Positions 4,708-55,225 of a stretch of DNA of 64,000 nt are shown here, in pieces; position 1 is the stretch's first letter, and every line of letters starts with the position of its first letter. The stretch spans positions 128,001-192,000 of the IMG/VR virus record IMGVR_UViG_3300037466_003648. One strand, given 5' to 3'. Below the pieces are notes generated by a model, which was not told the origin of the DNA, searched no databases, and worked only from the letters and a program-made list of their open reading frames with translations. The position numbers and the translations under genes were made by a program. This DNA comes from a virus (lineage: Duplodnaviria; Caudoviricetes).

Positions 4708-7700
4708 AACCATCCGGTGTGAACCAGGGCATCGTAGACGACGTTGGAAGCACGGTCCAGCACACCGGAACGTGTCGGGGTCGGCGGTGCCACGTCCGCG
4801 CGGGCAGCGTGTGGGCTTGGGGTGTGTCCCTTGATCTGGGCACGACCGCCCTTGACCGTCACCGTTGGGCGCGGCTTTGGCTGCGCCTTGTTGGCGGAGT
4901 CGTTGCTGCCCTGTCGTCCCTGGGGCGTGTTGGTCTGGAGGGTGACGACCATCTTCTTCTTGGCGTTCTTGGGCGCCAGGGACGGCGGCTTGGGCAGCGG
5001 AGACATCTGCTCCAGAATGTCTGGTGCCAGCACCAAAGGCGGGTGGGTGTTCTCACCCTCCCGATCCTTGCGCACGCGCTCGCGCATCTGCAAGTTCTGG
5101 ACGACCAGGTCCGGCGACGGGTGGTTACGACGCCAGAACTCGACCATGTCTCGGTCCGCCTGACGCATGGGGCTCTGGGGCACCAACAGGTCCGTCTGGA
5201 ACGTGCGTTCGTAGTGCCAGGAACCCGCCGCGCCCATCAGCACTTCGAGACCCTTCTTCTTGTTTGCCCATGCGGCCTTCGCGTAGTCGCTCAGGTGCGT
5301 TGTCACCTGGTTGTACTTGTCCTCGTCGCGTGCGTAAGGGCTCAAGCCGCCCGACGCCTGTGGGAACGCCTCGAAGACGGCACGCGCCAAGCCCGTCTGC
5401 CAGTTGCCGGGCATACGCTGGAACTTGTAGGTGTCCATCACACGGTAGTAAGGCACGCCTTGAATGACCGCCGGGCGGACCAGCGCACGACCGATGGCGA
5501 GCTTCTCCGCCTCGACGTCGATGCCGCGCTGGGACGTGCTGACGTAGTCGGCGTACTCGATCGAGTGCGTCTTGCGCTTCGCAGACTCTTCCAGTGCGAA
5601 GCGGTAGCGGTTCAGCTCGTGGCTGGTGAAGCTGCTCTCCGTCATGGCGCCCATGTACGAGTTGTCGTGGCGGCCGAGACCGGCCCAGAACTGGCCTTGG
5701 TAGCGCACGAAGGACGGCACCGATGCACGACCAATCCAGCGCAGCACCTCACCAGGTGCGCTGGCAACGGTACCCACCGTGTTGGTCAGCAACCCCTTGG
5801 TGGCCGTGTTGATCTTGTTGATGCCCCACACGGTCGCACCACCCGCAACAACCGCGGCACCCAACCCAGCCGCCACAGGTGCCCACGCGGGAGCGGTGAT
5901 CACACCGGCCGCGATCAGCCCGGCGGTGCCCGCAGCCGCGGCACCAAAGGCGAGACTGCCCGTGTACATACCGGTAGCACCCGACACCACGTTCAGACCC
6001 GCCTCGCGGCGCTGGGTCTGCGAGGTACCAAAGACGGTTTGCAGGGCGTCCCAACCCACCGCAAGCCCCATCGAGACACGACCGAATGCCTTCGAGGCCG
6101 CCCAGGTCGCTACACGACCCAAGACCCGCATGCCCCGCGAGAGCTTCTGACCCATCCAGTGTGCCGCGTGTCCGGTTGCCGTCGCCAACTGACCCAGTGC
6201 ATGCAGCGCGGTCGACGTCGTCACCATGCCCAGGTTCCAGGTCGCACGGCTCCGCTCTTCGGGGGACGACGTCGAATCGGACAGGGTGTTGATGTCCAAG
6301 GCCGCGAAGGCCGCGCTCAAAGCGAGCGTGCCACGCAATCCCGCAAACGTGTTCGGTGCGCGACCGGGACCGGGTACTGGACCCAGCGGGATGACAGCAG
6401 GCGCCACTGCCGTGTTGGGACGACCCCGGACGGCAGCTGTTGCCCCAGAGCCCAACAAGAGCTGGGGAGTCGAACCCAGAGGAATGACACCGGGCGTGAC
6501 CGCCGTGTTGAGACGACCCCGCGGGGCTGCTACCGTACCAGGACCCAACAAGAGTGGATCGGCGTTCACCGGACCCAAGGCGATCAGGTCGGGCGTGTGC
6601 GCCCCGTTAAGGCGTCCACGGATCTGGGAGGTGGCGGGAGTACCCATGCCCAACACCAAGGGGTTTGCCGGGGCTCCCAGTGCGATCACTTCGGGCGTCA
6701 CGGCACCGTTGAGACGACCCCGCGTGATGGGTTCGGCCGTTACGCCCGGACCCAACAACAAAGGCGCCGTTCGCGTCTGCAGAGAACGCAGCCCCATGCC
6801 ACGGCTGTAGGTGCGTGCCGCGCTGGCAGACTCTTCCAATGGAGCTGCTGCCACGCTCAAGCCGCCGCCCATGGTCAACCCACGGCCCCGCAGCAGCTCG
6901 TAGCCGATCGGCTGACGGGTGGCGGGAGCGGGTTGGTCGGGATGCAGCATGCTCAACCCCGGTCCGTAGGTGGCTCCGTTCCGAGCCAACAGACTGACCG
7001 TCCGGGTCGACAGGCTACCGGGAACACGGCTCTCGGCCATCGCCATTGCATCTTCAATCAGGTGCATCGTGGGCGTTGGACGTACCGCGAAACGTCCTGT
7101 GCTTGGGTCGCGGTAGCGACCTGGCTGCATGATGGGATCGGGACGGAAGCGTGGACGACGCGGCACCACCCCGTAGGTCATTTCGACCAGGTCGGGGTGC
7201 GTAGGGTAGCTCTCACCTTCAACCGGCATGAAGCCGAAGCGCTCACGGCCGGTGGTCCACCGATAGCCATGATCATTCACCAGACGATCGAGAATGGGCA
7301 GCATGCCGCCTCGCTGACCCGCAGGGGCGGGACGGAACCGGCCATCAGGACCACGGTGCGGCAGTACTCGACCGGGCAATTCGATGACATCGGGCGTCGC
7401 CACCGCGTTGGCGCGACCCACCCCGCCCGTTTCCATTTGCTGGCGGAGTACCGTCAACTGCTTGCGAACGGGATCGGTGTGCGGCGCATGCGTACCGTTG
7501 AACAACGCGCCCAACACGTCGTTCTTGGAATGTCCCCACGGGAGACTCCAGACACCCTTGTGTTGGAAGGCCACAATGTGGTCGGTGTTCATCACACCAC
7601 GACCCAACAGACGGGGGTGCAGGTCCCGACGCGGGGCAGCGTTGACCCGATTGTACTCGGGCGTGAACGAGGGATGATCCCCGCGATCGGGCGAACGGAA

Positions 7701-10700
7701 GCGGCCCTGCGAGAAACCAATACCTCCTTCGCGCATGCCGTCCATGACGATGCGCAGGTTGCTGTCACCCAACACCTGCGACACGGAGGTTGCACGCGGC
7801 ATGGCCAAACCATGGGCGCCCGTACGCTCCAAGGGTGCGTCGAAGCGCAGACGCGCATCTCCGTGGAATGGGGTTGCGTGTGCGGGCGCCGCGGGACGCA
7901 GCCCGGCCGCGCGTGCCTGCATATCTTCGCGCAGCGCCACCAATTCTGTGCGAACGGGGTCGACGCCGATCATTCCCTGTTGGGTAGAGACGTGGGCAGC
8001 CACCGTTTGTGGAGCCGCCTCGGGCTTGCGCCAGCCCATCACGGTTGCCAACTGGCGTCCGACCATCGACAAGCCCTTACGGGCCAGCTGCGCAGCGGCG
8101 ATCGTGCCAAAGATCAACGTCGTCCCTGCCGCGAGCGTCGCCAGGTACTGCAACGTGGTCTGGTCCGCATTGCCTTGCGTGGGGTTCTTGCTCATGTCCC
8201 GCACGCCGTACGCGATCGGACGACCTGCACTGTCGTGGGTCGTGCCCGTGAAGAAGCCCCGCTCGCCCAGCATCTGGCGGTACTTTGTCTGCACCTGCTC
8301 GGCGCGCTGACGATCGTACCCCATGCGCTCCTGCAGCAGGTCCGCAATGCGGTCACCCCCAAACTTGCTGTCGACGCTGCCCGCGATGGCTTCCTGCAAC
8401 GCCTTGAACTGGGGGCTGGGGGCCGCCGTGCCGAACGGATGGAAGATCGCGTCGATCTTGCGACCGGGAATGAAGCTGTTCATTTCCGCTGCCGTCTGGA
8501 CCGTCTTGTTGCTGTTGTCCGCGAACTTACCATCACCAATGTAGGTGAACCAGTGCCGTCCGCTGGAGGGGTTCATCGACATCGGATCGGAGCCGGGCAC
8601 GAAGGTCGCGTACAGCACGTCGCCGACGTGCACGCCACCCGTTGCCACCAGGGTGCTGAGCTGAGAGATCGGCACGCCGCGGTGCGCCAGGTCAGCGGGA
8701 ACATCCGTGCGGATGTCCTTGCCGCCCATGCGCATGATCAGGTGACGCGAGTACTGGAAGCATTCGTGCGCGGTCGCAACGAACGGGCCGTTGAGGTGTG
8801 CAATCATCTGCTCGCGAGAAGGTGCCGCACTGGGCGGCTGAATGCCCGCGGCTTCTAGGATCGCATCCGCCTTCTGCTGCGGCGTGGCGATGCGACCCAG
8901 GCTCGCGTTCAGCTTCTTGCTCCAGTAGCCGGGATCGTCTTGTGGGAGCCAACGGCTCTCGTTGTAGAGGTTGGCACGCACGCGACCGGCCATGGTCTGT
9001 GCGATCGCAGGAGACAGCCCCGCACGCTCGACCATGAACTTGTCCAAGCTTCCCTTGTAGCCACCCTTCATGTACTCCGGCAGCACGCGCTCCAAGGTGG
9101 ACTGCTGCTCCTTGGTTAGCAGTGGCTTGTCCTGCGCGACCGAACTCGGTGCCAGGGTGCGAATCTCGCGGATCGTCTGCTCGATGTGGCTGCCGTACGT
9201 GCGGTCGGTCGCGTAGATGCCCGTGATGTTGTAGCCGAAGGCAACGGCATTGTGGTCCTTCTTGTACTGGGCCAACGCCTGTGCGTAGACGGGGTTCTGT
9301 ACGAACAGCTTGCCGTGCGCCACCATCGCCTCTTCCAGCGAACCGTAGTTGGCGAAGTCCGCGTACGTGGTCACGCGCCGACCGCCGACGTCTTCCCAGG
9401 TCTTGAGGTGCAAGCTGCCCCGCGAGCCACGACCCTTGATGCCGAACAGGTTAAAGTCGCCGATCTTGGAAGCGCCCCAACCAGATTCCCACGCCGCCTG
9501 AGCCAGTGTCACTTCGGCCGGTACACCGTACAGCTTCTCAGTCATCTCGGCACCGGCGCGCAGGCTCGCGACGAAGCCCGCCGCTCCCTGACCCAGGTGC
9601 GTACGAGGCGCGTTCGCCAACAACACCGCGTTGCGCATGTCGGTGCCGCTCGCGGGCTTGATGACCTCGCCCGTGAAAGGCTTCTGTGGGCGACCGCGAC
9701 CAGTGGTCCCAATCGTCGCGTCACCACCCACGAACCCACCGTAGGCATGACCCGTGCGATGCCAAACACCACCCAGGATGCCGGTTTCGTAGATCAAGCC
9801 GCGGCGCAGCAGCTCGCCTTGGATGATGCTGTCGGGACCGGACGCCGACCGGTAGCGGAAGGCACGCGCTGCCTGGGCGTTACCCAACCCACCCGTGCCG
9901 CGACCCCGTTGCATGTAGAGCGACTTGAGGCTGTAGTCGTGGGCGGGCATGTCGTTGCCACCCTCCATCAGCCCCAGCGCGTCGCGACCGACCATGTCCA
10001 GCACGGTCTCGTGACCCATCGCACCCGACAGGCGCAGACGCTCCTGTTGGGCGAAGGCCAACGCCCCCGCGTCCATCATCCAGCCAGTGCCGCCACCCTC
10101 CGGCGTGGCCGAGTTACGGCCCCAGAAGATCGGGCTTGCCTGCGCCCACAAGGGCGACAGCGAGAAGCTCCACCCTTCCTGGTTCGCCTTCGCCGCCTCG
10201 AAGAGATTGCCCGGCGCGAGCATAGGACCGATAAAGTTGGCGGTGCCGATCAGGAAGCTCGCAAAGCCGGTCGGCTGCGTCTGTCCCTTGGGCGTCAGCG
10301 TACGTGCCAGTCCGTAGAGTGAACCGGTGACATTCGCCTGCAGCCCAATCGCGGCACGGCTGATGGCATTGCCTACCATCGACGAGCCGGGGATCGAGGC
10401 TGCCGCGCGACCGCTGGCACTCACCACGGACGTCATGGTCGTGCCCAGCGAGGTCGAAGCCCGCTCCGCCCAATTGCGCTCTTCGGGGCGCTTGCTCAGC
10501 GCGCTCTCCGAGAGGTGGTGCTGCGCCATCATGCCGCCGAAGCCCAACGCGGCGAGGCCACCACCCACCAACAACGCAGGCAATCCCACCAAACCGAAGT
10601 AGCCAACAGCCGCGGCGCCCGCCACGGCGCTGCCACCCAAGAACAGTTCGGCCGTCAGCGAGGCACCACCCGCCTCCGCGAACTTCTCCTTCTGCTCCGT

Positions 10701-13700: not shown

Positions 13701-16622
13701 CAGTTCTGCCTGGTCACGAGGACCGGCGCCAGCTGCCACCAGCTTTTCCATGCGCCCCAACGACATGCGCTCCGTCTCGTTGACCATCATCGTGGTCGCC
13801 ATGGTCTTGGTGACGACCTTGTACATGAGGTCTTCACGACTGGCCATGAACGACATGGTCATGTCGCGCTGCATCGCGGTCAGGCGATCGACAAAGTACC
13901 CGGCGATGCCAGACGCCGACCAGTCTCGCAGACCCGCACGCTCCACCTCGCGGTAGGGGTTGTAGCCCCGCAGGTCGCTCGCCACCGAGACCATCTTGGT
14001 CGCGCGCTGGGCAGCCCCCAATGGGTTGAAGGGGTTCATCGACATCCCGGCAACGAACTGGGCACCCCAACTCAAGCCGGTGCTCAGCCCCACCGCGAGC
14101 GCGGGCATGATGTCCAGGATACCCGCCAACCCGCTGCGCGGTGCCAGGTCGGCCCAGCCAAAGTTGGTGACCGTCCCCGCCGCCCCGTGCAGCGTGTTCT
14201 CGCGGTCGATCTGGGTCTCCAGGGTCTCGCGCTTGGCAGACGCCAGCATGCCATAAGCGTGGGTCGCCACCGCGCCGACAAACAGTGCCTGGACGCCACG
14301 ACGGGCCAAGGCACGTCCGGGAGTCAGGCCGGTCTCGCCGTAGAGGTGTCCATAGGAACGCGCGAATTGACCTTGTGCGTGGGCATCACGCCACAGCTCT
14401 TGGGCGCGCGACCAGTCGCCCCGCAGCGCCGCACCCCACCCCGCGCGGCGTGTCGCGCGCATCCCCGCGATGTGAGGGTTTGGTGCCAGGTTGAGCACGT
14501 CGGCGACGAGCCCGCCACCCGGCAGCTCGCGAATGAAGCGATTGGCAACTTGGTTGACCGCCCGAAAACGCTCGTGCAGCGTCATGCGCTTGGCGTCGTG
14601 CTCGATCTCGTAGATCGTGTGAACATGCCCGCTAGGCAGCGTCACCGTCTTGACGTTGATCTTGCCGCCGCGCTGACGACGCAGGTCGAGCGCGAGTTGG
14701 CGGTCGGTGACCTGGACCTTCTTGAGCGACGACTTGTGGTCGTACACGCCCATGACATCGTCGATGAACTTGCGGCCAACGTCCCCCGCTACCGCCCCGT
14801 AGGCTTCGCGCTGGACGCCCCACAAACCCTTGGAGATGCCCGCGTGCACGTCCATCGCGTACTCGCCCGCCTGACCAGCCGCCACCGTCGCGTCACGCAC
14901 GAACGCCGACACCGGGCCATGCACGGGCGCGTTCAGCACCCGATCCCCGATGGTACGACTGATCCGCCCCATCCCGGAAGCCGCCCGCGCACCGATCTCG
15001 GCCATGAACATGGTCGACCGGATCAAGCCGATGTTCATTCCCAGGTTGAAGAGCGTGTCGTCTACCCAACGAGCGCCATCGGCATAGGTGCCCTCCGCCT
15101 TCGCGTCGATCGGACGGTAGTCGGCAGAGCCGTAAACCCGCAGCTGCTCGTCTTGATGGTTCCGACGATCGATCTGGGCGCCCAGGTTGACCAGCAGCGA
15201 GCCCAACGGCCCGCGGTTACCGCGTGCCTCGGTCAGCTCGCTCGCCGTGGCCGCCCAGCCACTGCCGAAGCGCTGGTTGACGTAGTCCGTGATCTGACCG
15301 CGCCACAGCTCGCCGAAGGTGGGCAGCATTGCCTCGCGGTCGCTTCGCGTGATGACGTCCGGCATGGACGACGGCAACTGCCCCTCGTGTCCACCTGCGT
15401 ACATCTCGGTGTAGAGGTGGCGATAGAAGCGCCCGGCCGAACGCATCGGGTTGACGAACGATCCCTGCTCGTGCGTGGCCGCTGCCCACGCGTACGCCTT
15501 GCGCGTGTCGGCATCGAAGATGACCTGGGGGTCCACGACGTACTGCCACGCCTTGCGTTGGCCGCCCAGCGAGATGCCGTGCAGGGGCATCATCGACGGC
15601 ATGAAGGTGCCCAACTTCGTGAACGGCATGCGCAACTGCTCGCCCGCACCGAAGTCGAAGTTGGACTGAACCTGACGAGCGATGTCGGCTGCCACACGGG
15701 CATCGCGGGCGTGCAGCATCACTTCGGTGGAGCGCTCGCCGTTGTAGCCTTCCACCGCGGTCTTGGAGAAGCGCATGGAGCCCACCATGTAGGTGTCACC
15801 CATGGCGATGACGTTGGCGTGCCACGGGCGGTTGCCCCAACCCACATGCAGGTTGGTCAGCGTGCGTCCTGCCGCCGTTAGCTTCTGGAACGCACGACCC
15901 TCGTTATTGATGTCTTGCTGGTTCAGACCACCCAAGCCCACGTAGACCTGATCGCCGCGGCGCGCCTTCTGGATGATCGAGTCCAGGACGTGCGGATCGG
16001 AGAGCGTGGCCGACGCGATGTACAACGCTGCGTGGTTACCCCGATCCCCGATGATGCGGCTCAGCACGTCCAGCGCGGTGCCCGTGTCCTTGGGACTGGC
16101 GACCAGCAGATTCTGGGTCGAGACCGGCGCACGACCAGCAGCGATCGCGCCCAGCACCGTGTCCATCTGGCGGACGAGGTTGGCATCGCGGGTTGCCACG
16201 AAGTAGTTGAACTGGGTCTTGTCCTGGCCGGAGAAGCGGCTGTACTCCGGCAGCGTCGCCATGCCCAAACCCGTCTTGGTCATGTTGGCGGTGCCAACGA
16301 ACATCACACGATCGCCGGTCGGGCTCGTGAACTCGCCGACCTTGGCGTGCAGACGCGAGCCGAAGGTCTTGCGATCGGCTTCGATCAGGTTCGTGTGACC
16401 CTTCAGGGTCTCGTAGGCTTGGGGGTTGGACCACTTCGCGGTGGTGCGCTCCGAACCCACGATGCGACCGCCGCCGGACAGAACCGAACGCGTGAGCCGG
16501 TTGTCCTCCACCTCGTAAGTGGTCATGACCGAACGCGACGACATACCGAGCAGGCTCAGTCGAGCCTGCTCGTCATCCCGGCCAAACCAGGTAGGCGAGG
16601 TGCGATCGTCGAAGGTGGGCAT
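4704..16622 (-). CDS. giant tape-measure-like virion protein with PLD, GH73 glucosaminidase and NlpC/CHAP-like domains (3972 aa)
   Basis: Ala/Gly-rich helical body with hydrophobic segments; HAK...GTAN PLD motif; AQAAWESGWG...NLFGIKG GH73 motif; ECFQYS...RHWFTYIG Cys/His pair. Confidence 0.75.
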   Translation of the reverse strand: MPTFDDRTSPTWFGRDDEQARLSLLGMSSRSVMTTYEVEDNRLTRSVLSGGGRIVGSERTTAKWSNPQAYETLKGHTNLIEADRKTFGSRLHAKVGEFTSPTGDRVMFVGTANMTKTGLGMATLPEYSRFSGQDKTQFNYFVATRDANLVRQMDTVLGAIAAGRAPVSTQNLLVASPKDTGTALDVLSRIIGDRGNHAALYIASATLSDPHVLDSIIQKARRGDQVYVGLGGLNQQDINNEGRAFQKLTAAGRTLTNLHVGWGNRPWHANVIAMGDTYMVGSMRFSKTAVEGYNGERSTEVMLHARDARVAADIARQVQSNFDFGAGEQLRMPFTKLGTFMPSMMPLHGISLGGQRKAWQYVVDPQVIFDADTRKAYAWAAATHEQGSFVNPMRSAGRFYRHLYTEMYAGGHEGQLPSSMPDVITRSDREAMLPTFGELWRGQITDYVNQRFGSGWAATASELTEARGNRGPLGSLLVNLGAQIDRRNHQDEQLRVYGSADYRPIDAKAEGTYADGARWVDDTLFNLGMNIGLIRSTMFMAEIGARAASGMGRISRTIGDRVLNAPVHGPVSAFVRDATVAAGQAGEYAMDVHAGISKGLWGVQREAYGAVAGDVGRKFIDDVMGVYDHKSSLKKVQVTDRQLALDLRRQRGGKINVKTVTLPSGHVHTIYEIEHDAKRMTLHERFRAVNQVANRFIRELPGGGLVADVLNLAPNPHIAGMRATRRAGWGAALRGDWSRAQELWRDAHAQGQFARSYGHLYGETGLTPGRALARRGVQALFVGAVATHAYGMLASAKRETLETQIDRENTLHGAAGTVTNFGWADLAPRSGLAGILDIMPALAVGLSTGLSWGAQFVAGMSMNPFNPLGAAQRATKMVSVASDLRGYNPYREVERAGLRDWSASGIAGYFVDRLTAMQRDMTMSFMASREDLMYKVVTKTMATTMMVNETERMSLGRMEKLVAAGAGPRDQAELGAIRATLDMAQQWAGQADKAQVSLSLAYGMRIGYLPLGSVWGGAVVEGGKTTFMLTAMLGMPSGIHGSVKLPYYYSDLRGRKGFRDWYRDHKNEEEIPMDGALRALIDATGGEDGWTANAVRFGMSFGYEPNTNWEASVRLGAGMIGVGLATTYGFAPLGAYAGAGLFARNGGSLLDAGRNVAAYIRTGEMRGSGFSMLGNMNRGMAERMVKSRGIAKFAYGMGAVGFGLANELAELPLTLVPRALNAGFTVAAQGITRGNVGWVNELTRRTGQLTRGYRVGARGAVGLFMGYTGYAFARAMSTGDPQGYREQMGGYRQMLKAIPLIGNSASRLFGETVDLKNVAAPIDPQEARRFAAGPTDSLSAESGAAGDKGRFRPGYLGIWDMLNRAAKQTVGMGKPEEFFMTAEAYSDLGLHAAFKQTGPDSMEMATWKITKMFFGGLMSIGYNTGWHVTRTKSSGEIDSQLAAAIGGSRKVLETEWVGRKRAAFMGRMFMPGSPMYEADPALKLAMAVRYNESRAALGMWPSEYRRYRGEFLPGGAKPAFLHQVTYTAQVRGMDGGVTQQFRWGNLMGGIWRKAGALDQADFSKTYAGQRQADRTGTSDVEAEDDIAALMGAPRTEEGTLLGIPTGARTLSEYQVNWLANPTTLVGAAAVGALAAVPFAAHFMARPMFAAWRGVRGERETWQERVERYMPTHQAKTHGVLLSPEAPHGPGAHPHWTLSGNKAGLYRVDLPVMGGDGLRAYGDYQGRPFADSTDPRGTVMAGRDKAKLVERSFNTLLARYEGLPQIRTAGAMGASLGRVLDVLDKLHPTSMPAGHMPSAAWFETQKAIGDLGLRLPTTSTAAITDDLMSEYEQIMRRMLNEFGTIAGTAPIDMNAVFREAGMTGAGLAKNVVAGAGLEPAFTPHTPGMHIPGATTKPADYLFRNDPTGGYAAHRAAVEARLTEIKSTAPGYLRRGAAGAVGLGLGAFDGFGRVMQGLSIAQVATGMAAQSSDFLTTEQKEKFAEAGGASLTAELFLGGSAVAGAAAVGYFGLVGLPALLVGGGLAALGFGGMMAQHHLSESALSKRPEERNWAERASTSLGTTMTSVVSASGRAAASIPGSSMVGNAISRAAIGLQANVTGSLYGLARTLTPKGQTQPTGFASFLIGTANFIGPMLAPGNLFEAAKANQEGWSFSLSPLWAQASPIFWGRNSATPEGGGTGWMMDAGALAFAQQERLRLSGAMGHETVLDMVGRDALGLMEGGNDMPAHDYSLKSLYMQRGRGTGGLGNAQAARAFRYRSASGPDSIIQGELLRRGLIYETGILGGVWHRTGHAYGGFVGGDATIGTTGRGRPQKPFTGEVIKPASGTDMRNAVLLANAPRTHLGQGAAGFVASLRAGAEMTEKLYGVPAEVTLAQAAWESGWGASKIGDFNLFGIKGRGSRGSLHLKTWEDVGGRRVTTYADFANYGSLEEAMVAHGKLFVQNPVYAQALAQYKKDHNAVAFGYNITGIYATDRTYGSHIEQTIREIRTLAPSSVAQDKPLLTKEQQSTLERVLPEYMKGGYKGSLDKFMVERAGLSPAIAQTMAGRVRANLYNESRWLPQDDPGYWSKKLNASLGRIATPQQKADAILEAAGIQPPSAAPSREQMIAHLNGPFVATAHECFQYSRHLIMRMGGKDIRTDVPADLAHRGVPISQLSTLVATGGVHVGDVLYATFVPGSDPMSMNPSSGRHWFTYIGDGKFADNSNKTVQTAAEMNSFIPGRKIDAIFHPFGTAAPSPQFKALQEAIAGSVDSKFGGDRIADLLQERMGYDRQRAEQVQTKYRQMLGERGFFTGTTHDSAGRPIAYGVRDMSKNPTQGNADQTTLQYLATLAAGTTLIFGTIAAAQLARKGLSMVGRQLATVMGWRKPEAAPQTVAAHVSTQQGMIGVDPVRTELVALREDMQARAAGLRPAAPAHATPFHGDARLRFDAPLERTGAHGLAMPRATSVSQVLGDSNLRIVMDGMREGGIGFSQGRFRSPDRGDHPSFTPEYNRVNAAPRRDLHPRLLGRGVMNTDHIVAFQHKGVWSLPWGHSKNDVLGALFNGTHAPHTDPVRKQLTVLRQQMETGGVGRANAVATPDVIELPGRVLPHRGPDGRFRPAPAGQRGGMLPILDRLVNDHGYRWTTGRERFGFMPVEGESYPTHPDLVEMTYGVVPRRPRFRPDPIMQPGRYRDPSTGRFAVRPTPTMHLIEDAMAMAESRVPGSLSTRTVSLLARNGATYGPGLSMLHPDQPAPATRQPIGYELLRGRGLTMGGGLSVAAAPLEESASAARTYSRGMGLRSLQTRTAPLLLGPGVTAEPITRGRLNGAVTPEVIALGAPANPLVLGMGTPATSQIRGRLNGAHTPDLIALGPVNADPLLLGPGTVAAPRGRLNTAVTPGVIPLGSTPQLLLGSGATAAVRGRPNTAVAPAVIPLGPVPGPGRAPNTFAGLRGTLALSAAFAALDINTLSDSTSSPEERSRATWNLGMVTTSTALHALGQLATATGHAAHWMGQKLSRGMRVLGRVATWAASKAFGRVSMGLAVGWDALQTVFGTSQTQRREAGLNVVSGATGMYTGSLAFGAAAAGTAGLIAAGVITAPAWAPVAAGLGAAVVAGGATVWGINKINTATKGLLTNTVGTVASAPGEVLRWIGRASVPSFVRYQGQFWAGLGRHDNSYMGAMTESSFTSHELNRYRFALEESAKRKTHSIEYADYVSTSQRGIDVEAEKLAIGRALVRPAVIQGVPYYRVMDTYKFQRMPGNWQTGLARAVFEAFPQASGGLSPYARDEDKYNQVTTHLSDYAKAAWANKKKGLEVLMGAAGSWHYERTFQTDLLVPQSPMRQADRDMVEFWRRNHPSPDLVVQNLQMRERVRKDREGENTHPPLVLAPDILEQMSPLPKPPSLAPKNAKKKMVVTLQTNTPQGRQGSNDSANKAQPKPRPTVTVKGGRAQIKGHTPSPHAARADVAPPTPTRSGVLDRASNVVYDALVHTGWF

Positions 16623-16625
16623 GCG

Positions 16626-18605
16626 TTACCAGTCGGCTTGGGTCACCGACGTCTTCCGCCCCATGGTCCGAATCGTCGCCCCTGCATTTCTGGGCGCGTT
16701 GTTGATCAACCGTTGATTGCTGCGTGCGGCCATGGCACGACCCTCATCGAAGATGTCGGAGATGACGCCCGCCGCACGCACCTTGCCGACCGTGCGCATC
16801 TTGTCCGAACCCACTTCGAAGCTGCGGTACTTGCGCTCGTCCTGGGCGATCTTGTAGATGACGCAGGCCAGGCAGTCGGACAAGTCCTTCGAGCCGCGGG
16901 GCTTCGGGTGATCGATGCGACGACCGTTCATCAGCTTCAGCTCGATCAACTCCTTGTGCAGCTGGGCAGCGGCGGGCGACACGCTCGGGTCCGGTAGCTG
17001 GATGCGCTCGGCGTAGAGCCAGTCGCGCAAGGTCAGGTAAATGTCGCGCTGGACCTGCTGACTAAAGCTCGACTTCCACTCGCGGGTATTCACGCCCTTC
17101 GAGTACAGGCGTTGGATGATCATGGCACTCTGCCAGTGGTCGAAGGTCATGTCCCGCAGGGTGATGTAGGGAGCCAGCTCCAGGATGATCTCTTCCACGT
17201 TCATGAAGTCCGTGGGGTAGATGTTCTTGCGGCCCTTGTCGAGCGGCTGCCACTTCAGGATGGTGTGCACGTCCGCGTGCACCAACCCCGTGGCTGCGTC
17301 GTAGAAAGGCGAGGCGGCCACGAAACCGAAGCTGTCCTTCTTCAGACCGGGGTCTCCGTGCGCGTAGCTTTGGAAGCCGATCGGAACGCTGATCGCATCG
17401 CGGTCGACGTGGATCTTAATGCCTGCCTTGATCTGCACGCCATCGGGTCCGACCACCTGCGTCTCGATGGCCTCGTAGCCGACCGGCAGACTCATGCGCG
17501 TCGTGACCTTCTGGACCAGCGGCTTCTGGAAGTAGGACTCCTCCGAACCGGGGCGGACGCCTGCGTAGTCGCGCTGCGCCTCGATGCCGCGTGCAGCGAA
17601 CTCTTTGCGCATGAAGGGGTGCTCTTCGCCCAGCTTCGCGAACTCCGGGTTGATGTCCCAGGTGCAGAGGCGGAACGCCAGGATGTTGGCGCCCTCCTCG
17701 GTCTCTGCCATCTCGTACATCGTGTCCGTGATGTCGCCTTCCGCCCAGGCGGAGGAGATGACGATGCGCTTGGAGCCGAACTTCTGGAGGGTGGTGACAC
17801 CCTTGCCGACGTTGGCGTACATCTCCGCGCCCGACGCACCGCCTTGGGCTTCGACACCAAAGCGGTTGCCCTCGTCCATCGCGAAGATCATCAGGGTACG
17901 GCCGACCAGACCCTCGGAACGGCTGTGACCGGCCCAGAGCAGGAGGTTCTTGCTTTCGCAGTAGATCTCCAGCGCGTTGACCTGGATGACGCCGGTGGCC
18001 ATGAGACCCTGGAAGTAGGGGCTGTGCTCGATACGACCCTTGACGGCGGCGAACAGCGTGTCCTTGGACTGCTTCTCGGAGGTTGCCAACACGAGGAAGG
18101 CAATCAGGGATCCCGCCATCAAACCGAACGACGCGGCAGGGTCCTTGAGCTGCAGGAGCTTGTAGAACTCGAAGGTCACCATGATGGAGGTCAGCGAGGT
18201 CTTGGAGCCGCGCATCCCGCACTCCAAACACAGCTCTTGGTACTCCTGGCCTTCGACCCAGGTGGTCTTGTTGTCCAGTGACCACTGCTGGAGGATCTCG
18301 CGCTCGTCCCACGGATCGTCCGGGTGCATGTCGTAACGGGAGCACCAGCTGAAGATCTCTTCCTCGCGCTCGGCGCTCGTCCGGCCCGTGAGGTTGATGC
18401 ACAGGTCGCGCCAGAGCCCCTTCTCCAGCGGCAGGTTGTACAGCGCCTTGAGGATGGCACGCTGGGTCGGCCACAGACGGACGCCCAGGATCTCTGTAGC
18501 GAACTGGACAACGTCCATCGTTGTCTGGTCCTGCTGCATACCTTCTGCCACGATCTCGTGGATGAAGCTCTGTGCCTTGAGCAGTGGCTTGTTGATCTTA
18601 CTCAT
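16626..18605 (-). CDS. terL: terminase large subunit
   Basis: Walker A-like CGMRGSKT, Walker B IFAMDEG, nuclease domain HGDPG...DSFG, FDHWQS, KDLSDC. Confidence 0.9.
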   Translation of the reverse strand: MSKINKPLLKAQSFIHEIVAEGMQQDQTTMDVVQFATEILGVRLWPTQRAILKALYNLPLEKGLWRDLCINLTGRTSAEREEEIFSWCSRYDMHPDDPWDEREILQQWSLDNKTTWVEGQEYQELCLECGMRGSKTSLTSIMVTFEFYKLLQLKDPAASFGLMAGSLIAFLVLATSEKQSKDTLFAAVKGRIEHSPYFQGLMATGVIQVNALEIYCESKNLLLWAGHSRSEGLVGRTLMIFAMDEGNRFGVEAQGGASGAEMYANVGKGVTTLQKFGSKRIVISSAWAEGDITDTMYEMAETEEGANILAFRLCTWDINPEFAKLGEEHPFMRKEFAARGIEAQRDYAGVRPGSEESYFQKPLVQKVTTRMSLPVGYEAIETQVVGPDGVQIKAGIKIHVDRDAISVPIGFQSYAHGDPGLKKDSFGFVAASPFYDAATGLVHADVHTILKWQPLDKGRKNIYPTDFMNVEEIILELAPYITLRDMTFDHWQSAMIIQRLYSKGVNTREWKSSFSQQVQRDIYLTLRDWLYAERIQLPDPSVSPAAAQLHKELIELKLMNGRRIDHPKPRGSKDLSDCLACVIYKIAQDERKYRSFEVGSDKMRTVGKVRAAGVISDIFDEGRAMAARSNQRLINNAPRNAGATIRTMGRKTSVTQADW

Positions 18606-18813
18606 GGGACTTGCCCTCCGGGGACGCCTCGGGCAGCGCGTAGCTCATGATGGCGTCGAGGGGAACCTTGATCCATACGCTCTCCGCATCGGAAGCCATC
18701 ACCGTCACAGGTACCAGCTCCTGAACGAAGCGCAGCCCCACCGCGTTCGGCTCGTCTTGCACCACCTTGAACAGGCGGCGCATGAGGTCGAACGCGAGGG
18801 GAATGCGAGCCAT
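18598..18813 (-). CDS. hypothetical protein
   Basis: 71 aa ORF coupled between the endolysin and terL. Confidence 0.6.
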   Translation of the reverse strand: MARIPLAFDLMRRLFKVVQDEPNAVGLRFVQELVPVTVMASDAESVWIKVPLDAIMSYALPEASPEGKSHE

Positions 18814-18817
18814 GGTC

Positions 18818-19585
18818 TTAGCCCTTGATGATGTCGAGCATCATGAACTTCTCGTGACCGGCCTTGAGCGCGTCGTAGATGCGCAGCAGCTCGGTCATGA
18901 TGCCGTTCATGTTCCCGGTACCCACATCCACACGGAATCGGCCGTAGCCGTCCTGCTGGGCGTAGCTGGCGTGGTCGCTAACGACCTTCATCTGGATCAT
19001 CTTGCCGGTCTTCCAGATGCTGTTGGCATTCGGCTGGTCGCAAGCCATCTGGTCGATCGTCTCCGTCGCGCGGGGGTCGATTCGGTGCCAGGCGCAGTAC
19101 TCCGCGGCCAGGCGGGCACCCACCATAAGCTGCGCCTTGGTGACCGGCTGGCCGGAGGCCATTGCCATGAACGAGATGCCGATCGAGCCCGTGTTGCGCG
19201 CCCAGAGGTGCTTGCCCTTCTGGTTGCCCTTGAGGAAGCGCACGGCGTACGCCTGACCGGTCTTCGCGTCGTACACCACGCCGAACTGGTAACCGTCCCA
19301 GCACTGGTTGTAGTTGCCCGCGCTCCAGTGGAAAATGATGCGCTTGGACGTACCGGGATCGCCGTCCTTCTGGTCGTTCTCGTAGCAGAGCTGCAGCGTG
19401 AGCGTGTTGCTCAACTTCACGGACGTGTGCCGTGCCGCGTAGTGACCGGTCAGGTCGTAGGCGATCGGTTGGGTGGTCGTCGGATGCACGACCGGCGCGA
19501 GCAACAGACCGGGTGCCTCGCACTCGGTCACCTCGTACCAGGTCGGGTGCTCCAGCTTCAGTTGGGTGAGGTTCTTGTCAGCCAC
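18818..19585 (-). CDS. endolysin, N-acetylmuramoyl-L-alanine amidase (Amidase_2-like)
   Basis: KRIIFHWSAG...YQFGV...HLWARNTGSIGISF...DH Zn-amidase motifs. Confidence 0.8.
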   Translation of the reverse strand: MADKNLTQLKLEHPTWYEVTECEAPGLLLAPVVHPTTTQPIAYDLTGHYAARHTSVKLSNTLTLQLCYENDQKDGDPGTSKRIIFHWSAGNYNQCWDGYQFGVVYDAKTGQAYAVRFLKGNQKGKHLWARNTGSIGISFMAMASGQPVTKAQLMVGARLAAEYCAWHRIDPRATETIDQMACDQPNANSIWKTGKMIQMKVVSDHASYAQQDGYGRFRVDVGTGNMNGIMTELLRIYDALKAGHEKFMMLDIIKG

Positions 19586-19598
19586 GGGGTCCTGCTTT

Positions 19599-20033
19599 CT
19601 AGAGTTGGGTCGGGTCGATCACCGCGACCATCACCACGCGAGGTGGCTTGAGGAGGGAGTCGTACCCAATGTAGAAGATGTCACCGTGCGAGCGCTGGAG
19701 CATGAAGGCCATGTCCAACAGGGCACGGCCAAAGCGCATCGTGCGGGTGTGGGGTGTGTTCAGGTCGTCGGTGGGATTCGAGACGTCCACCACCACCCGA
19801 TGGGATTCGGTAAAGGTCTCGTCATACACAACATACCCTTGCTGATCCACTTCTGGCAGATCGATCAAGTAGACGAAGGGTTCTACGACCTTGACGGCAT
19901 CCGCGTGCGTCAGGATCAACATCAGCTTGTGGTCACCCAACGTGTCCAGTCCCTGGAAACCGCCGGGCGCGGAAGCGGCTAAGGTCTTCAGGGCGTCGCG
20001 GACTTGGGGATCGAGCAGAACGAGCGAGTTCAT
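19599..20033 (-). CDS. hypothetical protein
   Basis: 144 aa ORF in operon order. Confidence 0.65.
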   Translation of the reverse strand: MNSLVLLDPQVRDALKTLAASAPGGFQGLDTLGDHKLMLILTHADAVKVVEPFVYLIDLPEVDQQGYVVYDETFTESHRVVVDVSNPTDDLNTPHTRTMRFGRALLDMAFMLQRSHGDIFYIGYDSLLKPPRVVMVAVIDPTQL

Positions 20034-20038
20034 GGCGG

Positions 20039-21793
20039 CTACCTGTTGTTGTCGGCACGCAGCTGGTTCAGCTTCGTGTACAGCGGCTTGAGGCGCTCAC
20101 GCAGCCCGGATGCCTGGGCAATCGCAGCAGCCTTGACGGTCTCGTCCATCGACGTTGCACCGATGCTGTTGTTGTACTGGCTGATCGCCGTGTCGGCAGC
20201 ATCGATGGCAGAGGATGCGGCACCAATGGCTGCCGTACCCGCAGCTTGCAGCTTGGGATCTCCCTTGGTCAGGTCCACCGTATTCAGCTGCCGTTGGCCC
20301 GCCGTGGCCGCGTAAGCAGCAACAGCCGTGGCCGCCTTGGCAACCTTGCCCTCGGCCGCGGTCACCAGTTGGGCGGCCGACTCGAAGTTCTTGCCGTTGG
20401 GTGTTGCCGTGCGAGTGCGCGGGGCCGGGTCGGTGATCTTGCCACCGCCGCCCAGCACCTGGTTGCTGGCACCGCCCGCGGGGATCTTGGTGTCCTGCTT
20501 GGCCTGCAGGGTCTCCTTGGTCGCGCGCTGCACCAGGGTCGTGTCCGCATCCGAACCACCCTCGATGCCGCCCACGGCAAAGCACTGGAACTTGTAGTAG
20601 GTACGGGCATCGTCGCGGTACCAGCGGGTGTAGTTGGTCACGATGACCTGGTACTTGATGCGCACCACGCCGCTGAAGATCTCGAAGTCGACCGCCGTGC
20701 CGCCCTTTACCGCGTTGTCGAGGAACACCCGCGACACCTGCCACGAGCCGCCCTTCTTCTCCGGGTCCGTGTAGAGCGGGTCGGGGTTGTAGGGATCGTG
20801 GTAGCCGACCTTGTGCAGATCTTGGTTCAACAGACGCGCCTGGTCCCAACCCAAGAACGCTCCCACGAACTCGATCATCAAACCCTGGATGCCCAAGGAC
20901 TGGTAGACAGGCGCACCGCCGGGAATGAGCAGCGTCGCGTAGTTCTGGACGTGCACGAAACGGATGCCCGCCTCGGCACCGGGTGCTTGCTGACCCTGTA
21001 CCCCACCGTGGATGGGCAGGATCGAGTTGGTGGCAGGGGGCAGCTCGAACGGCACGTTCGCGAGCTTGACCTCCATGTGACCTGCGTGACCCACGTTGAC
21101 CTGGTGCGTGGGTGGCGTGCGCGTGAAGGTAGGCGGCGTGTCGTCCGGCCAGTAGTACTCGACCAGCTGCGGCTGGGGTGGCCGGTAGCCGAAGTTGAGA
21201 CCGTACTGCTTGGCGAGCAGCCCCAGCGCCGCACCGGCCAGGTTGGGCAACAGGACGCCTGTGATCGCGTCGGCCGCCACACCCCCGAAATTGCCTTGCA
21301 AGATGTCGGCCAGGATCGTGTCGCGCGTCGAGGGCGACATGTTCGAGAGCACCGCCCCGACGGCCGGAATGTGCTGACCGAACGTGTCGAGCACACTGTC
21401 CATGACCTGGACGCCCGTGCCCGGCCACGAGAGCGTGGAGATCACCGCACCGGGGTTTTGGGCGACCGTGTCGATCGCGTCGATGCCCTTCTGATACAGC
21501 TCGCCGACGATGCCCTGCACGCCGCTGTCACCACTGGCGGGCAGGAGTCCCGTCTGGTAGAGCATACCGTCAAGGTAGGTCTGGCCGTCGAGGTAGTTGT
21601 TACCGGTACCCGCCTTCGCCTGTCGGATGCGATGGGCGACGTCCGGGGGCATCTCGTTGTTGTTGACCGAGGCCAGCAGGGTATCCCCAAGCGTTGGATC
21701 CCCGGAGAGTTGGTTGACGCCCAGAACTGTTGGCTGCTTCGTAACAGAAGCAGCCAGGTTCGCGAACTCGGCAGTCAGGAACTCCAGCCCCAT
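20039..21793 (-). CDS. hypothetical virion protein (central region resembles tail-tube initiator/baseplate centrepiece proteins)
   Basis: 584 aa ORF; central beta-rich NYATLLIPGGAPVYQSLG...IEFVGAF...VIVTNYT segment; function inferred only. Confidence 0.45.
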   Translation of the reverse strand: MGLEFLTAEFANLAASVTKQPTVLGVNQLSGDPTLGDTLLASVNNNEMPPDVAHRIRQAKAGTGNNYLDGQTYLDGMLYQTGLLPASGDSGVQGIVGELYQKGIDAIDTVAQNPGAVISTLSWPGTGVQVMDSVLDTFGQHIPAVGAVLSNMSPSTRDTILADILQGNFGGVAADAITGVLLPNLAGAALGLLAKQYGLNFGYRPPQPQLVEYYWPDDTPPTFTRTPPTHQVNVGHAGHMEVKLANVPFELPPATNSILPIHGGVQGQQAPGAEAGIRFVHVQNYATLLIPGGAPVYQSLGIQGLMIEFVGAFLGWDQARLLNQDLHKVGYHDPYNPDPLYTDPEKKGGSWQVSRVFLDNAVKGGTAVDFEIFSGVVRIKYQVIVTNYTRWYRDDARTYYKFQCFAVGGIEGGSDADTTLVQRATKETLQAKQDTKIPAGGASNQVLGGGGKITDPAPRTRTATPNGKNFESAAQLVTAAEGKVAKAATAVAAYAATAGQRQLNTVDLTKGDPKLQAAGTAAIGAASSAIDAADTAISQYNNSIGATSMDETVKAAAIAQASGLRERLKPLYTKLNQLRADNNR

Positions 21794-21802
21794 GGGCGTC
21801 TC

Positions 21803-22264
21803 CTACTTCGTGCGGCTTACCGCGGGCGGATCGGCCGGGGGTGCTGCCTTCTGCGGCGACCAGTTCATGATGAGCGTGAGGGTCAACCCCAGTGCCGACA
21901 ACCCAACGGTGATCAGGGTCACGTAGGTCGCCGTCGTGTTGGAGTGCATGCTCTTCAGCAGCTCCAGGTGGTTGTGGTTGGTCTCGGCAATGGCCTCTTG
22001 AGCGGCATTCACCGCGGTTCCCAGCAGCGCCATCTGCTGCTGGGTCGCATCCAGACGAGCTTGGATCTCGTGCCGCGGCACGAAGCTCTGAGGCAGTGCC
22101 TTCAACTCGTTCAAGGTCGCACGAATCTCGTCGAGCTTCGAGTTCAACACGGCCAGTTGCTGGTTGTTCTGACTGGTCTGCGAGGCCGTTTCTGCCAGGC
22201 GCTTGTCCAGCTCCTGCAGCTTCTGCTCCAGCAAACCAATTCGCTGCTCCAACACTTCGGACAT
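21803..22264 (-). CDS. coiled-coil protein with a C-terminal TM helix (XhlA/holin-like)
   Basis: heptad N-terminus plus hydrophobic YVTLITVGLSALGLTLTLIM. Confidence 0.55.
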   Translation of the reverse strand: MSEVLEQRIGLLEQKLQELDKRLAETASQTSQNNQQLAVLNSKLDEIRATLNELKALPQSFVPRHEIQARLDATQQQMALLGTAVNAAQEAIAETNHNHLELLKSMHSNTTATYVTLITVGLSALGLTLTLIMNWSPQKAAPPADPPAVSRTK

Positions 22265-22274
22265 GGGCTTCTCC

Positions 22275-22601
22275 TTACGGCCGCAAGCTATCGAGAACCA
22301 ACACGCTGAAAAGCCCCGTAGACTGGGACTTCCCGTTCTGGAAGGTCACGACAACCTCCCCGGAGTAGGTACCAACAGTGTTGGTGTCGCCGTTCTGCCA
22401 GGCATACTCGGCCTTGCCGTCTTCGGCATCGGTCACGGTGCAGGCGCGATGGTCGATCAGGAGGTTCGTGGAGTCGGTGCCCATCGAGAACGTGATGGAC
22501 GAGACGTCTGTCAGGTCGACACAACTTCCATCTCGCTTCTTGAGATGGAACTGCAGGATCGGGAGCAAGTCCTTCTTGTAGATGGAAAATTCGATGGCCA
22601 T
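22275..22601 (-). CDS. BppU-like Ig-fold virion protein
   Basis: KKDLLPILQFHLK..DG..VDLT...DAEDGKAEY.W...DT...G.Y.GEV.VTF pattern. Confidence 0.6.
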   Translation of the reverse strand: MAIEFSIYKKDLLPILQFHLKKRDGSCVDLTDVSSITFSMGTDSTNLLIDHRACTVTDAEDGKAEYAWQNGDTNTVGTYSGEVVVTFQNGKSQSTGLFSVLVLDSLRP

Positions 22602-22602
22602 G

Positions 22603-22734
22603 CTAGTCCCCCAGCACCAAGGTCAACACGACGGACGGCGTCATCACCAGTGCCAAGGGGGCACTGTCGATCACCAGACCGAGGGTCTGATCGTTCTCGA
22701 TGATCAGCACGAGCGAAGTCGTAGGATCGGTCAT
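22603..22734 (-). CDS. small hypothetical protein (43 aa, MTDPTTSL...)
   Basis: GGAGGAG RBS 10 nt upstream; stop 1 nt before the next start. Confidence 0.5.
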   Translation of the reverse strand: MTDPTTSLVLIIENDQTLGLVIDSAPLALVMTPSVVLTLVLGD

Positions 22735-22779
22735 CGGCGTGGGGCTCCTCCACGAGCATGGTGGAGTGAAACTGCGTCT

Positions 22780-22821
22780 AACTTCTGGGCGACGCAACCG
22801 AAGCTGCGTCGCCCAGAAGTT
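22780..22821 (-). repeat. 17 bp perfect inverted repeat forming a cUUCGg-capped hairpin on the - strand
   Basis: AACTTCTGGGCGACGCA 22780-22796 / TGCGTCGCCCAGAAGTT 22805-22821. Confidence 0.85.
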
Positions 22822-22857
22822 GGAGTGAGGAGGAGAGGGAAGGAATGGAGCGGAAAA

Positions 22858-23142
22858 CTAGGCACGCGCCTTGTCGAGGACCGTGGTGATCAGCTTCTCG
22901 GCCAGCGCCTCGATGTTGGCCGCCACGCCGTGCAGCATGGCGTCGTTCTCCAGGAGCAGCTTGGCGTACGTGGGGATCTGGGGGATCGCTTCGATGGCCG
23001 CCTTGGCATCCTTGACGATGGTTTCGACAGCAGCCGCTGCATCGGCCGTGGCTTCAGCGGCGTTCAGCTTGCGTTCGACCGCGGCTTCCAGGATCGACGC
23101 GATGACCTGCTCCGCGTCCTGCAACAATTCGTTGGGGGTCAT
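22858..23142 (-). CDS. hypothetical Ala-rich helical protein
   Basis: 94 aa ORF with AAAGGAG RBS. Confidence 0.7.
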   Translation of the reverse strand: MTPNELLQDAEQVIASILEAAVERKLNAAEATADAAAAVETIVKDAKAAIEAIPQIPTYAKLLLENDAMLHGVAANIEALAEKLITTVLDKARA

Positions 23143-23204
23143 GGGGATCTCCTTTCAGATCGACATGCCACATGGTGTCGCAAAACCGGGGTAAGAACTG
23201 GGCA

Positions 23205-26114: not shown

Positions 26115-26564
26115 CTAAACCACGGGGTTGTCGTCGCGTGCCAGCTCGTCGGCGACCTGGTCGGACGCACGCGCCCCCGGCAGACGATGCAAGACGCTGT
26201 GGAAGACGTCGAGCCGCAGGAAGTCGATCACGACATCGATCATCGGATTGTGCCAACCCAAGGCCACCGAGACGCCCTTGACGTTCTGCAGCACGGAGAT
26301 GACCTCCTTGAGCAGCAGCAGATAGAAGCACGCGCTGCCCACATGGTCGACCAGGGGCAACCCGATCCCGCCGAAGAACACCTGCAAGACGGCGAGCACG
26401 CTCAGGTAGAGCGACAGCTTCACCAAGACCAGTGGAAGTCGGCGCACGTCGAAGCGCTTCTCCAGCACAGCCCGCGGCGTCCCCGTCAACCAGTCAAGCA
26501 GCAGCACGAGGTACAGCATCTGTGCCTCGGAACTCTGCAAGAAGACGAGAAAGGCGGCGTACAT
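26115..26564 (-). CDS. holin (family-4-like)
   Basis: AGGAG RBS before ATG 26564; three hydrophobic segments; LDWLTG and KEVISVLQN motifs. Confidence 0.7.
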   Translation of the reverse strand: MYAAFLVFLQSSEAQMLYLVLLLDWLTGTPRAVLEKRFDVRRLPLVLVKLSLYLSVLAVLQVFFGGIGLPLVDHVGSACFYLLLLKEVISVLQNVKGVSVALGWHNPMIDVVIDFLRLDVFHSVLHRLPGARASDQVADELARDDNPVV

Positions 26565-26571
26565 GGGACTC

Positions 26572-26727
26572 CTAGTTGCCGGAGTTGTTGCTGATGATGC
26601 CAGGCCCCGGACCACTCGTGACGAGCGGTCGGGGCACGGTGGGTGCGGTAGGGCACACGACTTGCGGCGTGCAGCTGACGAACAGCAGGACCGCCGCGAC
26701 CATGAGCACCGTCGTGATCAGGCGCAT
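26572..26727 (-). CDS. small Pro-rich lipoprotein (o-spanin/Rz1-like), 51 aa, absent from the ORF track
   Basis: MRLITTVLMVAAVLLFVSC signal peptide with lipobox-like end, then TPQVVCPTAPTVPRP; AGGAGG RBS; stop fused to the holin RBS. Confidence 0.65.
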   Translation of the reverse strand: MRLITTVLMVAAVLLFVSCTPQVVCPTAPTVPRPLVTSGPGPGIISNNSGN

Positions 26728-54460: not shown

Positions 54461-54463
54461 TGG

Positions 54464-55156: not shown

Positions 55157-55225
55157 CTTGGTGACTCCTCTTCTTCAGGGACCGCTCCTCATGGTAAGGA
55201 TGTGGTCATGTGTGATCTGGGCGCT

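Follow-up and report, generated by a model that had tools for sequence, protein, structure and literature searches.

What is a phospholipase D (PLD) fold doing at the very start of a giant phage protein, and where would such a protein act? The question is raised by a window of 64,000 nt (the whole stretch of DNA that was analysed), which corresponds to positions 128001-192000 of the complete IMG/VR record IMGVR_UViG_3300037466_003648, a phage genome of 205,180 bp with direct terminal repeats. The window carries on its minus strand an open reading frame (ORF) whose product of 3972 amino acids (aa) we call P0001. The other representatives of its family are numbered P0002-P0010, and all coordinates are window positions (Table 1). 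The first 335 residues of P0001 are a genuine two-lobe domain of the PLD superfamily, placed ahead of wall hydrolases and predicted membrane hairpins. On balance, we favour a reading in which this giant is packed in the virion, carries a probably catalytic PLD domain, is expelled at infection and acts on a phosphodiester.

The fold was recognised by profiles, by structure prediction and by structural comparison. When residues 1-360 were searched, the Pfam profile PLDc_2 (PF13091) matched in two stretches (E 8.4e-9, 35.8 bits, for a gathering cut-off of 27). Over the whole of P0001 it scored 27.2 bits against the same cut-off, and it matches 8 of the 10 family members, with a best E-value of 8e-20. 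An AlphaFold2 (AF2) model built on ten relatives reached a predicted local distance difference test (pLDDT) of 81.4 and a predicted template modelling score (pTM) of 0.81. Foldseek matched this model to the solved PLD 7e0m with E 8e-16, and VIA superposed the two with Z 26.3 and a root-mean-square deviation (rmsd) of 3.0 Å over 291 residues, the alignment lying within residues 1-349. The VIA scores for PLD3/PLD4, vaccinia F13 (Z 25.5), E. coli PssA, Streptomyces PLD and the C1-C2 part of polyphosphate kinase 1 (PPK1) lie within about 3 Z units of each other. The closest shapes in the ESM Atlas are compact bacterial two-lobe PLD-like proteins of 320-375 aa (template modelling score 0.66-0.69). 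The two alpha/beta lobes, related by pseudo-twofold symmetry, are also recognisable as copies of one another, since hhalign aligns them with E 0.0018 and puts VGTxNxT of lobe 1 on GSxRxS of lobe 2. At the sequence level, phmmer of residues 1-360 against PDB sequences gave a chance hit only. With the family profile, the best PDB sequence matches were PPK1 C1 (E 5e-4) and the nuclease NucT (E 1.7e-3). The model of the RE_NgoFVII nuclease PLD is matched by P0008 at E 5.6e-5, and one member of the family reaches 4.4e-7.

These results bear out a first-pass annotation, made by a model from the DNA sequence, which had proposed tandem PLD lobes at the N-terminus of a 3972-aa protein and had suggested a structure prediction as a check. 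The ORF is open over the full 3972 aa, the prediction for the N-terminal domain is a PLD fold with Z of about 26 to solved PLD enzymes, and the interval first given for it, 15750-16400, covers both motifs within the longer domain. The solved two-lobe enzymes (7e0m, PLD3/PLD4, F13, PssA and PPK1 C1-C2) resemble P0001 over about 280-300 residues, with Z 23-26 and rmsd of about 3 Å. P0001 differs from them in its low sequence identity (10-17%), in its second-lobe motif, in its fusion to a chain of about 3600 residues and in the absence of the extra domains of PPK1 (N, H) or of PLD1/2. PPK1 itself was considered as an identity for the protein and rejected: the PLD domain starts at residue 1, there is no match to PP_kinase or PP_kinase_N, and the similarity is confined to C1-C2.

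The active-site motifs are where P0001 departs from the textbook enzyme. The two strings quoted in the first-pass annotation, H92-A-K94...V-G-T-A-N113-M-T and H268-A-N-V-I-A...V-G-S-M-R284-F-S, are both present. Lobe 1 has the same HxK...GTxN as the rest of the PLD superfamily, with one qualification: the Asp position of HxK(x)4D(x)6G(S/T)xN is variable in the family and is T99 in P0001. Neither lobe retains a conserved Asp at the HKD position, and members of the HKN type, such as Tdp1, are also without that Asp. In lobe 2 the canonical HKD motif is absent, because the Lys has become N270 and the Asn R284; H268 and G-S282 are retained. Most of the ten representatives have H-x-N at this place (P0004 reads HAS and P0010 is gapped), and G-S-x-R is found in 8 of the 10 (FSARFS in P0004, GSSN in P0010). 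The second copy had been described as degenerate. The two substitutions are real, but the adjective does not fit: since K to N and N to R are conserved across the family, we take HxN...GSxR to be a family signature and not decay. R284, standing in place of the usual Asn, might compensate for the lost lysine. Judging from the motifs and the model, residues 1-335 are probably catalytic, as a phosphodiesterase or a phosphotransferase. The conserved HxN...R of lobe 2 is a natural experiment on PLD catalysis.

How common is such a fusion? When 1.84 billion representatives were searched exhaustively with HMMER, only ten clusters were returned. Eight of these are giant proteins of 2710-4554 aa with the PLD domain at the N-terminus and varying wall hydrolases. 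The PLD domain is the best-conserved stretch of the protein: it is 54-61% identical to the 4108-aa P0002, compared with 15-45% over much of the rest, and beyond P0002-P0004 it is the only region that BLAST detects in the relatives. H92, K94, N113, H268 and S282 are invariant among proteins that are otherwise less than 35% identical. That the PLD domain is the best-conserved part, and the sole BLAST-detectable one in distant relatives, argues for a selected activity. We found no match by tblastn of P0001:1-360 and P0010:80-400 against GenBank phages, and no publication linking phospholipase D to phage tape measures, ejection proteins or virion-associated lysins. A survey of such fusions, also suggested at the outset, thus found none annotated in the GenBank phages. 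The impression that the fusion was unfamiliar held for the annotated GenBank phages and for the literature; it did not extend to uniqueness. The fusion is rare and unannotated rather than unique, because it is present without annotation in Microcoleus phage My-WqHQDG and probably in gp080 of Microcystis phage Ma-LMM01.

In My-WqHQDG the protein concerned is WOL31340, a 4151-aa 'hypothetical protein' matched by the hidden Markov model (HMM) of the family with E 4e-5 and by Pfam PLDc_2 with E 1e-9. Like P0001, it is a giant, PLD-bearing protein encoded downstream of a terminase-like homologue (two small genes downstream, in this case), in a phage of the same wider group. Unlike P0001, it has its PLD domain at residues ~950-1180 and not at the N-terminus, it has HxK in both lobes, and no other region aligns. 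The case of Ma-LMM01 is less direct. In its gp080, a hypothetical protein of 3562 aa, HPKFFVSD occurs at residue 287 and HVK at residue 566. In BFVD, the fold has a match at E 6.7e-7 in a model labelled 'PLD phosphodiesterase domain-containing protein [Microcystis phage LMM01]', the identity of this model with gp080 being unproven. Residues 150-650 of gp080 did not align significantly with the family profile (hhalign E 0.025, probability 1.9%), Pfam gave no match in gp080, and gp080 has no match in the window's own genome. Altogether, gp080 is probably a PLD-bearing relative. Another protein of Ma-LMM01, gp064, was rejected as a PLD relative, having neither an HxK(x)4[DE] motif nor a family-HMM match. 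My-WqHQDG (OR578706) has two giant genes, at L008 1-7273 and at L010 9923-22378, the latter encoding the PLD-bearing WOL31340. The ORF in L008 is 5'-truncated, exceeds 2600 aa and is homologous to Ma-LMM01 gp080 at 25% identity. With two giant genes in My-WqHQDG, the lineage may carry two distinct giant proteins.

The remainder of P0001 points to the cell envelope. Besides PLDc_2, the only other Pfam domain in P0001 is a GH73/FlgJ-type N-acetylglucosaminidase, whose region also matches PHROG endolysin families and the NCBIfam entries FlgJ and GsmA. This muralytic domain lies within a large late protein and is separate from the endolysin, the Amidase_2 and the holin being distinct genes. The hydrolases found beside the N-terminal PLD domain of the orthologues are different ones: SLT plus M23 in P0002, P0003, P0005 and P0008, and VanY in P0010. 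Two Gly/Ala-rich hydrophobic pairs, predicted to form transmembrane hairpins, recur at comparable relative positions in P0002 and P0003. Residues 341-1540 are predicted to be about 60% helical, with helices of up to 54 residues; the AF2 model of this part had a pLDDT of only 34.6 and was used for its secondary-structure content alone. A feature search of the ESM Atlas with residues 360-2340 was uninformative (best score 0.78).

P0001 contains a single cysteine, C2621, compared with a cysteine content of 0.48% in 34 neighbouring late proteins (binomial P ~1e-7), and its relatives have 0-2 cysteines per protein of 2710-4554 residues. The region around C2621 takes the place that Peptidase_M23 has in P0002 and P0003. 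A Cys-His peptidase, on an NlpC/P60-like reading, is a plausible candidate there; phmmer of residues 2500-2820 gave no PDB match, and the candidate region has no Pfam match. No signal peptide was found in P0001. A crude check for a hidden RNA polymerase in the style of crAss-like phages or N4 found no DxDxD or DxDGD motif in P0001, and this candidate was dropped. P.GRF motifs are scattered along the protein, at residues 397, 1349, 2973, 3094 and 3176.

One module of this gene differs between closely related strains. An IMG/VR fragment, L006, carries the same giant gene, and the DNA flanks of its cassette are 99.3% and 97.7% identical to the window. The cassettes in between, 520 nt in the window and 517 nt in L006, have no nucleotide similarity; that of L006 encodes an SLT lytic transglycosylase (E 8.5e-19). 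Of the 167 differences between the two proteins, 150 fall within residues 2301-2550. This is a recent, in-frame, like-for-like exchange of a glycosidase module, and it shows that modular exchange is ongoing within one very long gene. A swap of GH73 for SLT in near-identical strains fits a host-facing part that needs to match the wall of the host.

How might these parts work together? P0001 is, we think, likely to be a virion-delivered protein that breaches the envelope, either as a tape measure or as an ejection protein. Under this proposal, virions would contain the protein and release it through the contractile tail as they infect. The GH73 glycosidase, possibly with the candidate peptidase, would open the peptidoglycan, the Gly/Ala-rich hairpins would insert into the membrane, and the PLD domain would attack a phosphodiester at the entry site or immediately behind it. 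The position of the gene at the end of a late operon of structural, lysis and packaging functions was counted in favour of a virion role. Since separate genes supply this phage with a holin and an amidase, the hydrolases of the giant would not be needed for lysis from within. The separate holin and amidase, the absence of a signal peptide and the avoidance of cysteine would all fit a protein that is threaded through the tail and works outside the producing cell. Regarding the substrate, a membrane phospholipid is our leading candidate, at somewhat less than even chances. Host nucleic acid is a tentative second, and some other phosphodiester or phosphotransfer reaction is quite unlikely, as is a non-catalytic domain. 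A phospholipid is somewhat more likely than nucleic acid, because the PLD domain is physically linked to wall hydrolases and membrane hairpins, which makes an envelope substrate the likelier one. The most specific version of the proposal, in which an active virion PLD cleaves phospholipids or transfers phosphatidyl groups and thereby remodels the host membrane locally so that the hairpins form a conduit for DNA, is a speculative one that we would not bet on.

Several observations weigh against this picture. P0001 matches no family of tape measures or ejection proteins in Pfam (E ≤ 1), PHROGs (E ≤ 0.01) or NCBIfam (E ≤ 0.1), and in one relative the giant gene sits among replication genes. The fold, the conserved motifs, the domain architecture, the synteny and the rarity of the family are shown here; the place of the protein in the virion, its ejection, catalysis and the substrate are what we infer. 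The second lobe is without the canonical Lys and Asn, so that activity could be altered or lost. The fold groups lipid enzymes, nucleases and PPK1 within about 3 Z units and does not tell them apart, and the best PDB matches of the family profile are to PPK1 and NucT, one member also matching the PLD domain of the NgoFVII nuclease. Finally, by our own reasoning, a folded domain of 37 kDa would be too big for the lumen of a tail tube unless it were unfolded or lay outside the tube.

Could the giant be a true tape measure, which lies in the tail tube and sets the length of the tail, and to whose N-terminus, nearest the head, the PLD domain has been added? Mu-like myoviruses place chaperones and the tape measure between tube and hub, and in the window there is no gene in that slot, between the second tube-like paralogue and the hub; the same is true of Ma-LMM01 and My-WqHQDG. 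The Gly/Ala-rich hydrophobic segments, the long region predicted to be helical and the embedded lysins are also features of several tape measures, such as T5 Pb2 (PMC5380687). The absence of a family match, which for NCBIfam extends to P0002, is weak evidence against this idea, because tape measures are very divergent. The location of the gene also counts against a tape measure. The lysis cassette and a terminase-like gene come before it, the hub and tail genes lie about 30 kb farther up the operon, and no small chaperone pair precedes it. In a 208-kb relative (L003/L004) it stands alone, on the opposite strand, among genes of replication and nucleotide metabolism. Tape measures account for about 1.5 Å of tail length per residue, and 3972 residues would thus imply a tail of about 600 nm. 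A protein of more conventional size is available, namely the 992-aa product encoded in the baseplate module, which is itself without a family match. Its hydrophobic stretches are rich in Gly and Ala, a long part of it is polar and helical, and its C-terminus is beta-rich and Vgr/gp5-like. It is possibly the conventional tape measure or a spike extension; a feature search of the ESM Atlas with it was uninformative (best score 0.77). The label 'tape-measure-like' given in the first-pass annotation is therefore not upheld by family matches, by gene position or by the displaced gene of the 208-kb relative, and we regard a true tape measure as possible but unlikely.

Other readings keep the protein and change what the PLD domain does, or where. 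It may be a nuclease, like Nuc, NucT, BfiI or PLD3/4, that would enter the cytoplasm together with the phage DNA and there break down host DNA or RNA or overcome a defence based on nucleic acids. The 5' exonucleases PLD3/4 tie for the top structural match (Z ~26), NucT and RE_NgoFVII are the profile matches already mentioned, and an exit of the giant with its C-terminus first would put the N-terminal PLD domain last, beside the DNA. Lipid enzymes match equally well (7e0m PLD, PssA, F13 and PLD1/2), however, and the partners of the domain in the chain are wall hydrolases and membrane hairpins, with no DNA-binding module among them, so a nuclease, though a serious rival, is in our view less likely than not. 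It is very unlikely that the giant is no virion protein at all and acts late in the infected cell, in the breakdown of membrane and envelope at lysis or in membrane remodelling like that of F13. Its gene does come shortly after the lysis cassette, it matches no structural family, and vaccinia F13 is a close structural match. Nevertheless, a 3972-aa protein without a signal peptide would be a costly means of reaching the wall from inside the cell, a holin and an amidase are already encoded by the phage, and both the extreme avoidance of cysteine and the strain-level glycosidase swap fit an external, host-facing role better. The domain could also be catalytically dead, and serve only in assembly, as a folded plug or by binding lipid or phosphate. 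This would agree with the N for K and the R for N in lobe 2 and with the lack of a conserved HKD Asp in either lobe, and inactive HKD domains do exist, as the Pfam family iHKD (PF24402). We hold it to be quite unlikely, given the invariance of both histidines, K94 and N113 in such divergent proteins, the fact that the changes in lobe 2 are conserved and keep a basic residue, and the canonical HxK that My-WqHQDG retains in both lobes.

The crossing of the cytoplasmic membrane by tailed phages is still poorly understood. To our knowledge, the known virion enzymes target polysaccharide or peptidoglycan, and the few that target lipid are predicted ones. A conserved PLD domain on a wall-cutting, membrane-inserting giant of a jumbo-phage lineage would add a phosphodiester-cleaving step to phage entry, be it membrane remodelling or a nuclease that is delivered first. 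If the version with a phospholipid substrate is true, P0001 would bring phospholipase D to phage particles for the first time and be the viral equivalent of the Tle5 effectors of the type VI secretion system. Its conserved asymmetric active site, with HxK/N in one lobe and HxN/R in the other, would then mark out a new PLD subfamily. The Tle5 proteins (PldA/PldB) are phospholipase D effectors delivered by a contractile, phage-tail-like machine, as separate cargo and with a canonical dual HKD. The likeness to P0001 is one of analogy only: a PLD-fold enzyme would be carried into the target envelope by a contractile injection device. The proposal is testable, because relatives of this lineage that infect Microcystis and Microcoleus are in culture.

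Among phages, large virion proteins with muralytic domains include T5 Pb2, phiKZ gp181 (246 kDa) and T7 gp16 (PMC5380687). Like P0001, they are very large late proteins with a peptidoglycan hydrolase in a mostly non-globular chain and with hydrophobic segments, and their phages, like this one, encode the endolysin and the holin separately. P0001 differs in its PLD domain, in being 1.6-3 times longer and in having no sequence or family match to them, and its own place in the virion is putative. A review of virion enzymes has no PLD among the virion-associated enzymes (PMC5380687). The same review describes Tal (Gp44) of Staphylococcus phage phi11, which combines an endopeptidase with a lipase/esterase domain, and also lipases predicted for the virions of Cellulophaga phages (PMC5380687). 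Tal is a precedent for a lipid- or ester-cleaving domain beside a wall hydrolase on a tail protein. Both Tal and the Cellulophaga lipases are unlike P0001 in being far smaller, and their enzymes are of the lipase/esterase, triacylglycerol hydrolase kind and not PLD (PMC5380687). We would place P0001 with the large virion-associated multi-enzyme proteins, on which a PLD enzyme would be newly described.

The window carries one long late operon on the minus strand, which runs from capsid through tail, lysis and a terminase-like gene to the giant gene (Table 1). Its further members encode a gpV-like spike, gp25-like and gpJ-like wedge proteins and fibre-like proteins. The ATG of the giant ORF lies 3 nt beyond the stop of the terminase-like gene, and the ORF is the sole one of more than 1500 aa on its strand across the 205-kb genome. 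Homologues of the terminase-like gene are found upstream of the giant gene in relative L002 and in My-WqHQDG (30% identity).

Table 1. Features of the late operon and of the giant gene, in window positions.
Feature	Position	Strand	Remark
Major capsid protein	62961-63929	-	Late operon
Tail sheath	56562-58988	-	Followed by two tube-like paralogues
Tube-like paralogues, 426 aa and 230 aa	Region 52832-56506; second at 54464-55156	-	Both phrog_34837
Mu gpP/gp44-like hub	52832-54460	-
992-aa protein	49064-52042	-	Between spike and gp25-like wedge, in the baseplate module
Holin	26115-26615	-
966-aa protein	23205-26105	-	No family match; directly downstream of the holin, before the remaining lysis cassette
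Amidase_2	18818-19585	-	Lysis cassette
Terminase-large-subunit-like gene, 659 aa	16626-18605	-	phrog_17415, E 4e-11
Giant ORF, P0001, 3972 aa	4704-16622	-	Last gene of the late operon
Two-lobe PLD-superfamily domain, residues 1-335	15618-16622	-	Pfam, AF2, Foldseek, VIA
Lobe-1 motif H92-x-K94...G-T-x-N113-x-T	16278-16349	-	H92, K94, N113 and T115 invariant in 10 representatives
Lobe-2 motif H268-x-N270...G-S282-x-R284-x-S	15765-15821	-	H268 and S282 invariant, R284 nearly so
Gly/Ala-rich hydrophobic pair, predicted transmembrane hairpin 1, residues 1990-2035	10518-10655	-	Kyte-Doolittle
520-nt cassette holding GH73	9132-9651	-	Replaced by the 517-nt SLT cassette in L006 (11456-11972)
GH73/FlgJ-type N-acetylglucosaminidase, residues 2359-2487	9162-9548	-	Pfam Glucosaminidase, E 7.4e-21
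Candidate Cys-His peptidase region, residues ~2620-2770	8313-8765	-	Contains the only Cys, C2621 (8760-8762)
Four tandem ~33-aa repeats RGRLN[GT]AxTPxxIxLG, residues 3301-3438	6309-6722	-	Near hairpin 2
Gly/Ala-rich hydrophobic pair, predicted transmembrane hairpin 2, residues 3545-3601	5820-5990	-	Kyte-Doolittle

For the sheath, tube and capsid proteins, the only similar ones are from the Ma-LMM01 group of Microcystis phages and from My-WqHQDG, at 28-39% identity. At the nucleotide level, megablast of window positions 14000-24000 against GenBank phages gave no match, and a locus search with a single protein returned only one near-identical fragment, of 20.7 kb. Near-identical DNA was found in soil and rhizosphere metagenome sequencing runs only, with 0 RNA runs among those listed. 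In the relatives L002, L003/L004 and L013, the giant gene abuts a convergent block with a gene for an HU-like protein (Bac_DNA_binding), a PDDEXK_1 nuclease or both, and this block persists in all of them even where the upstream neighbours differ.

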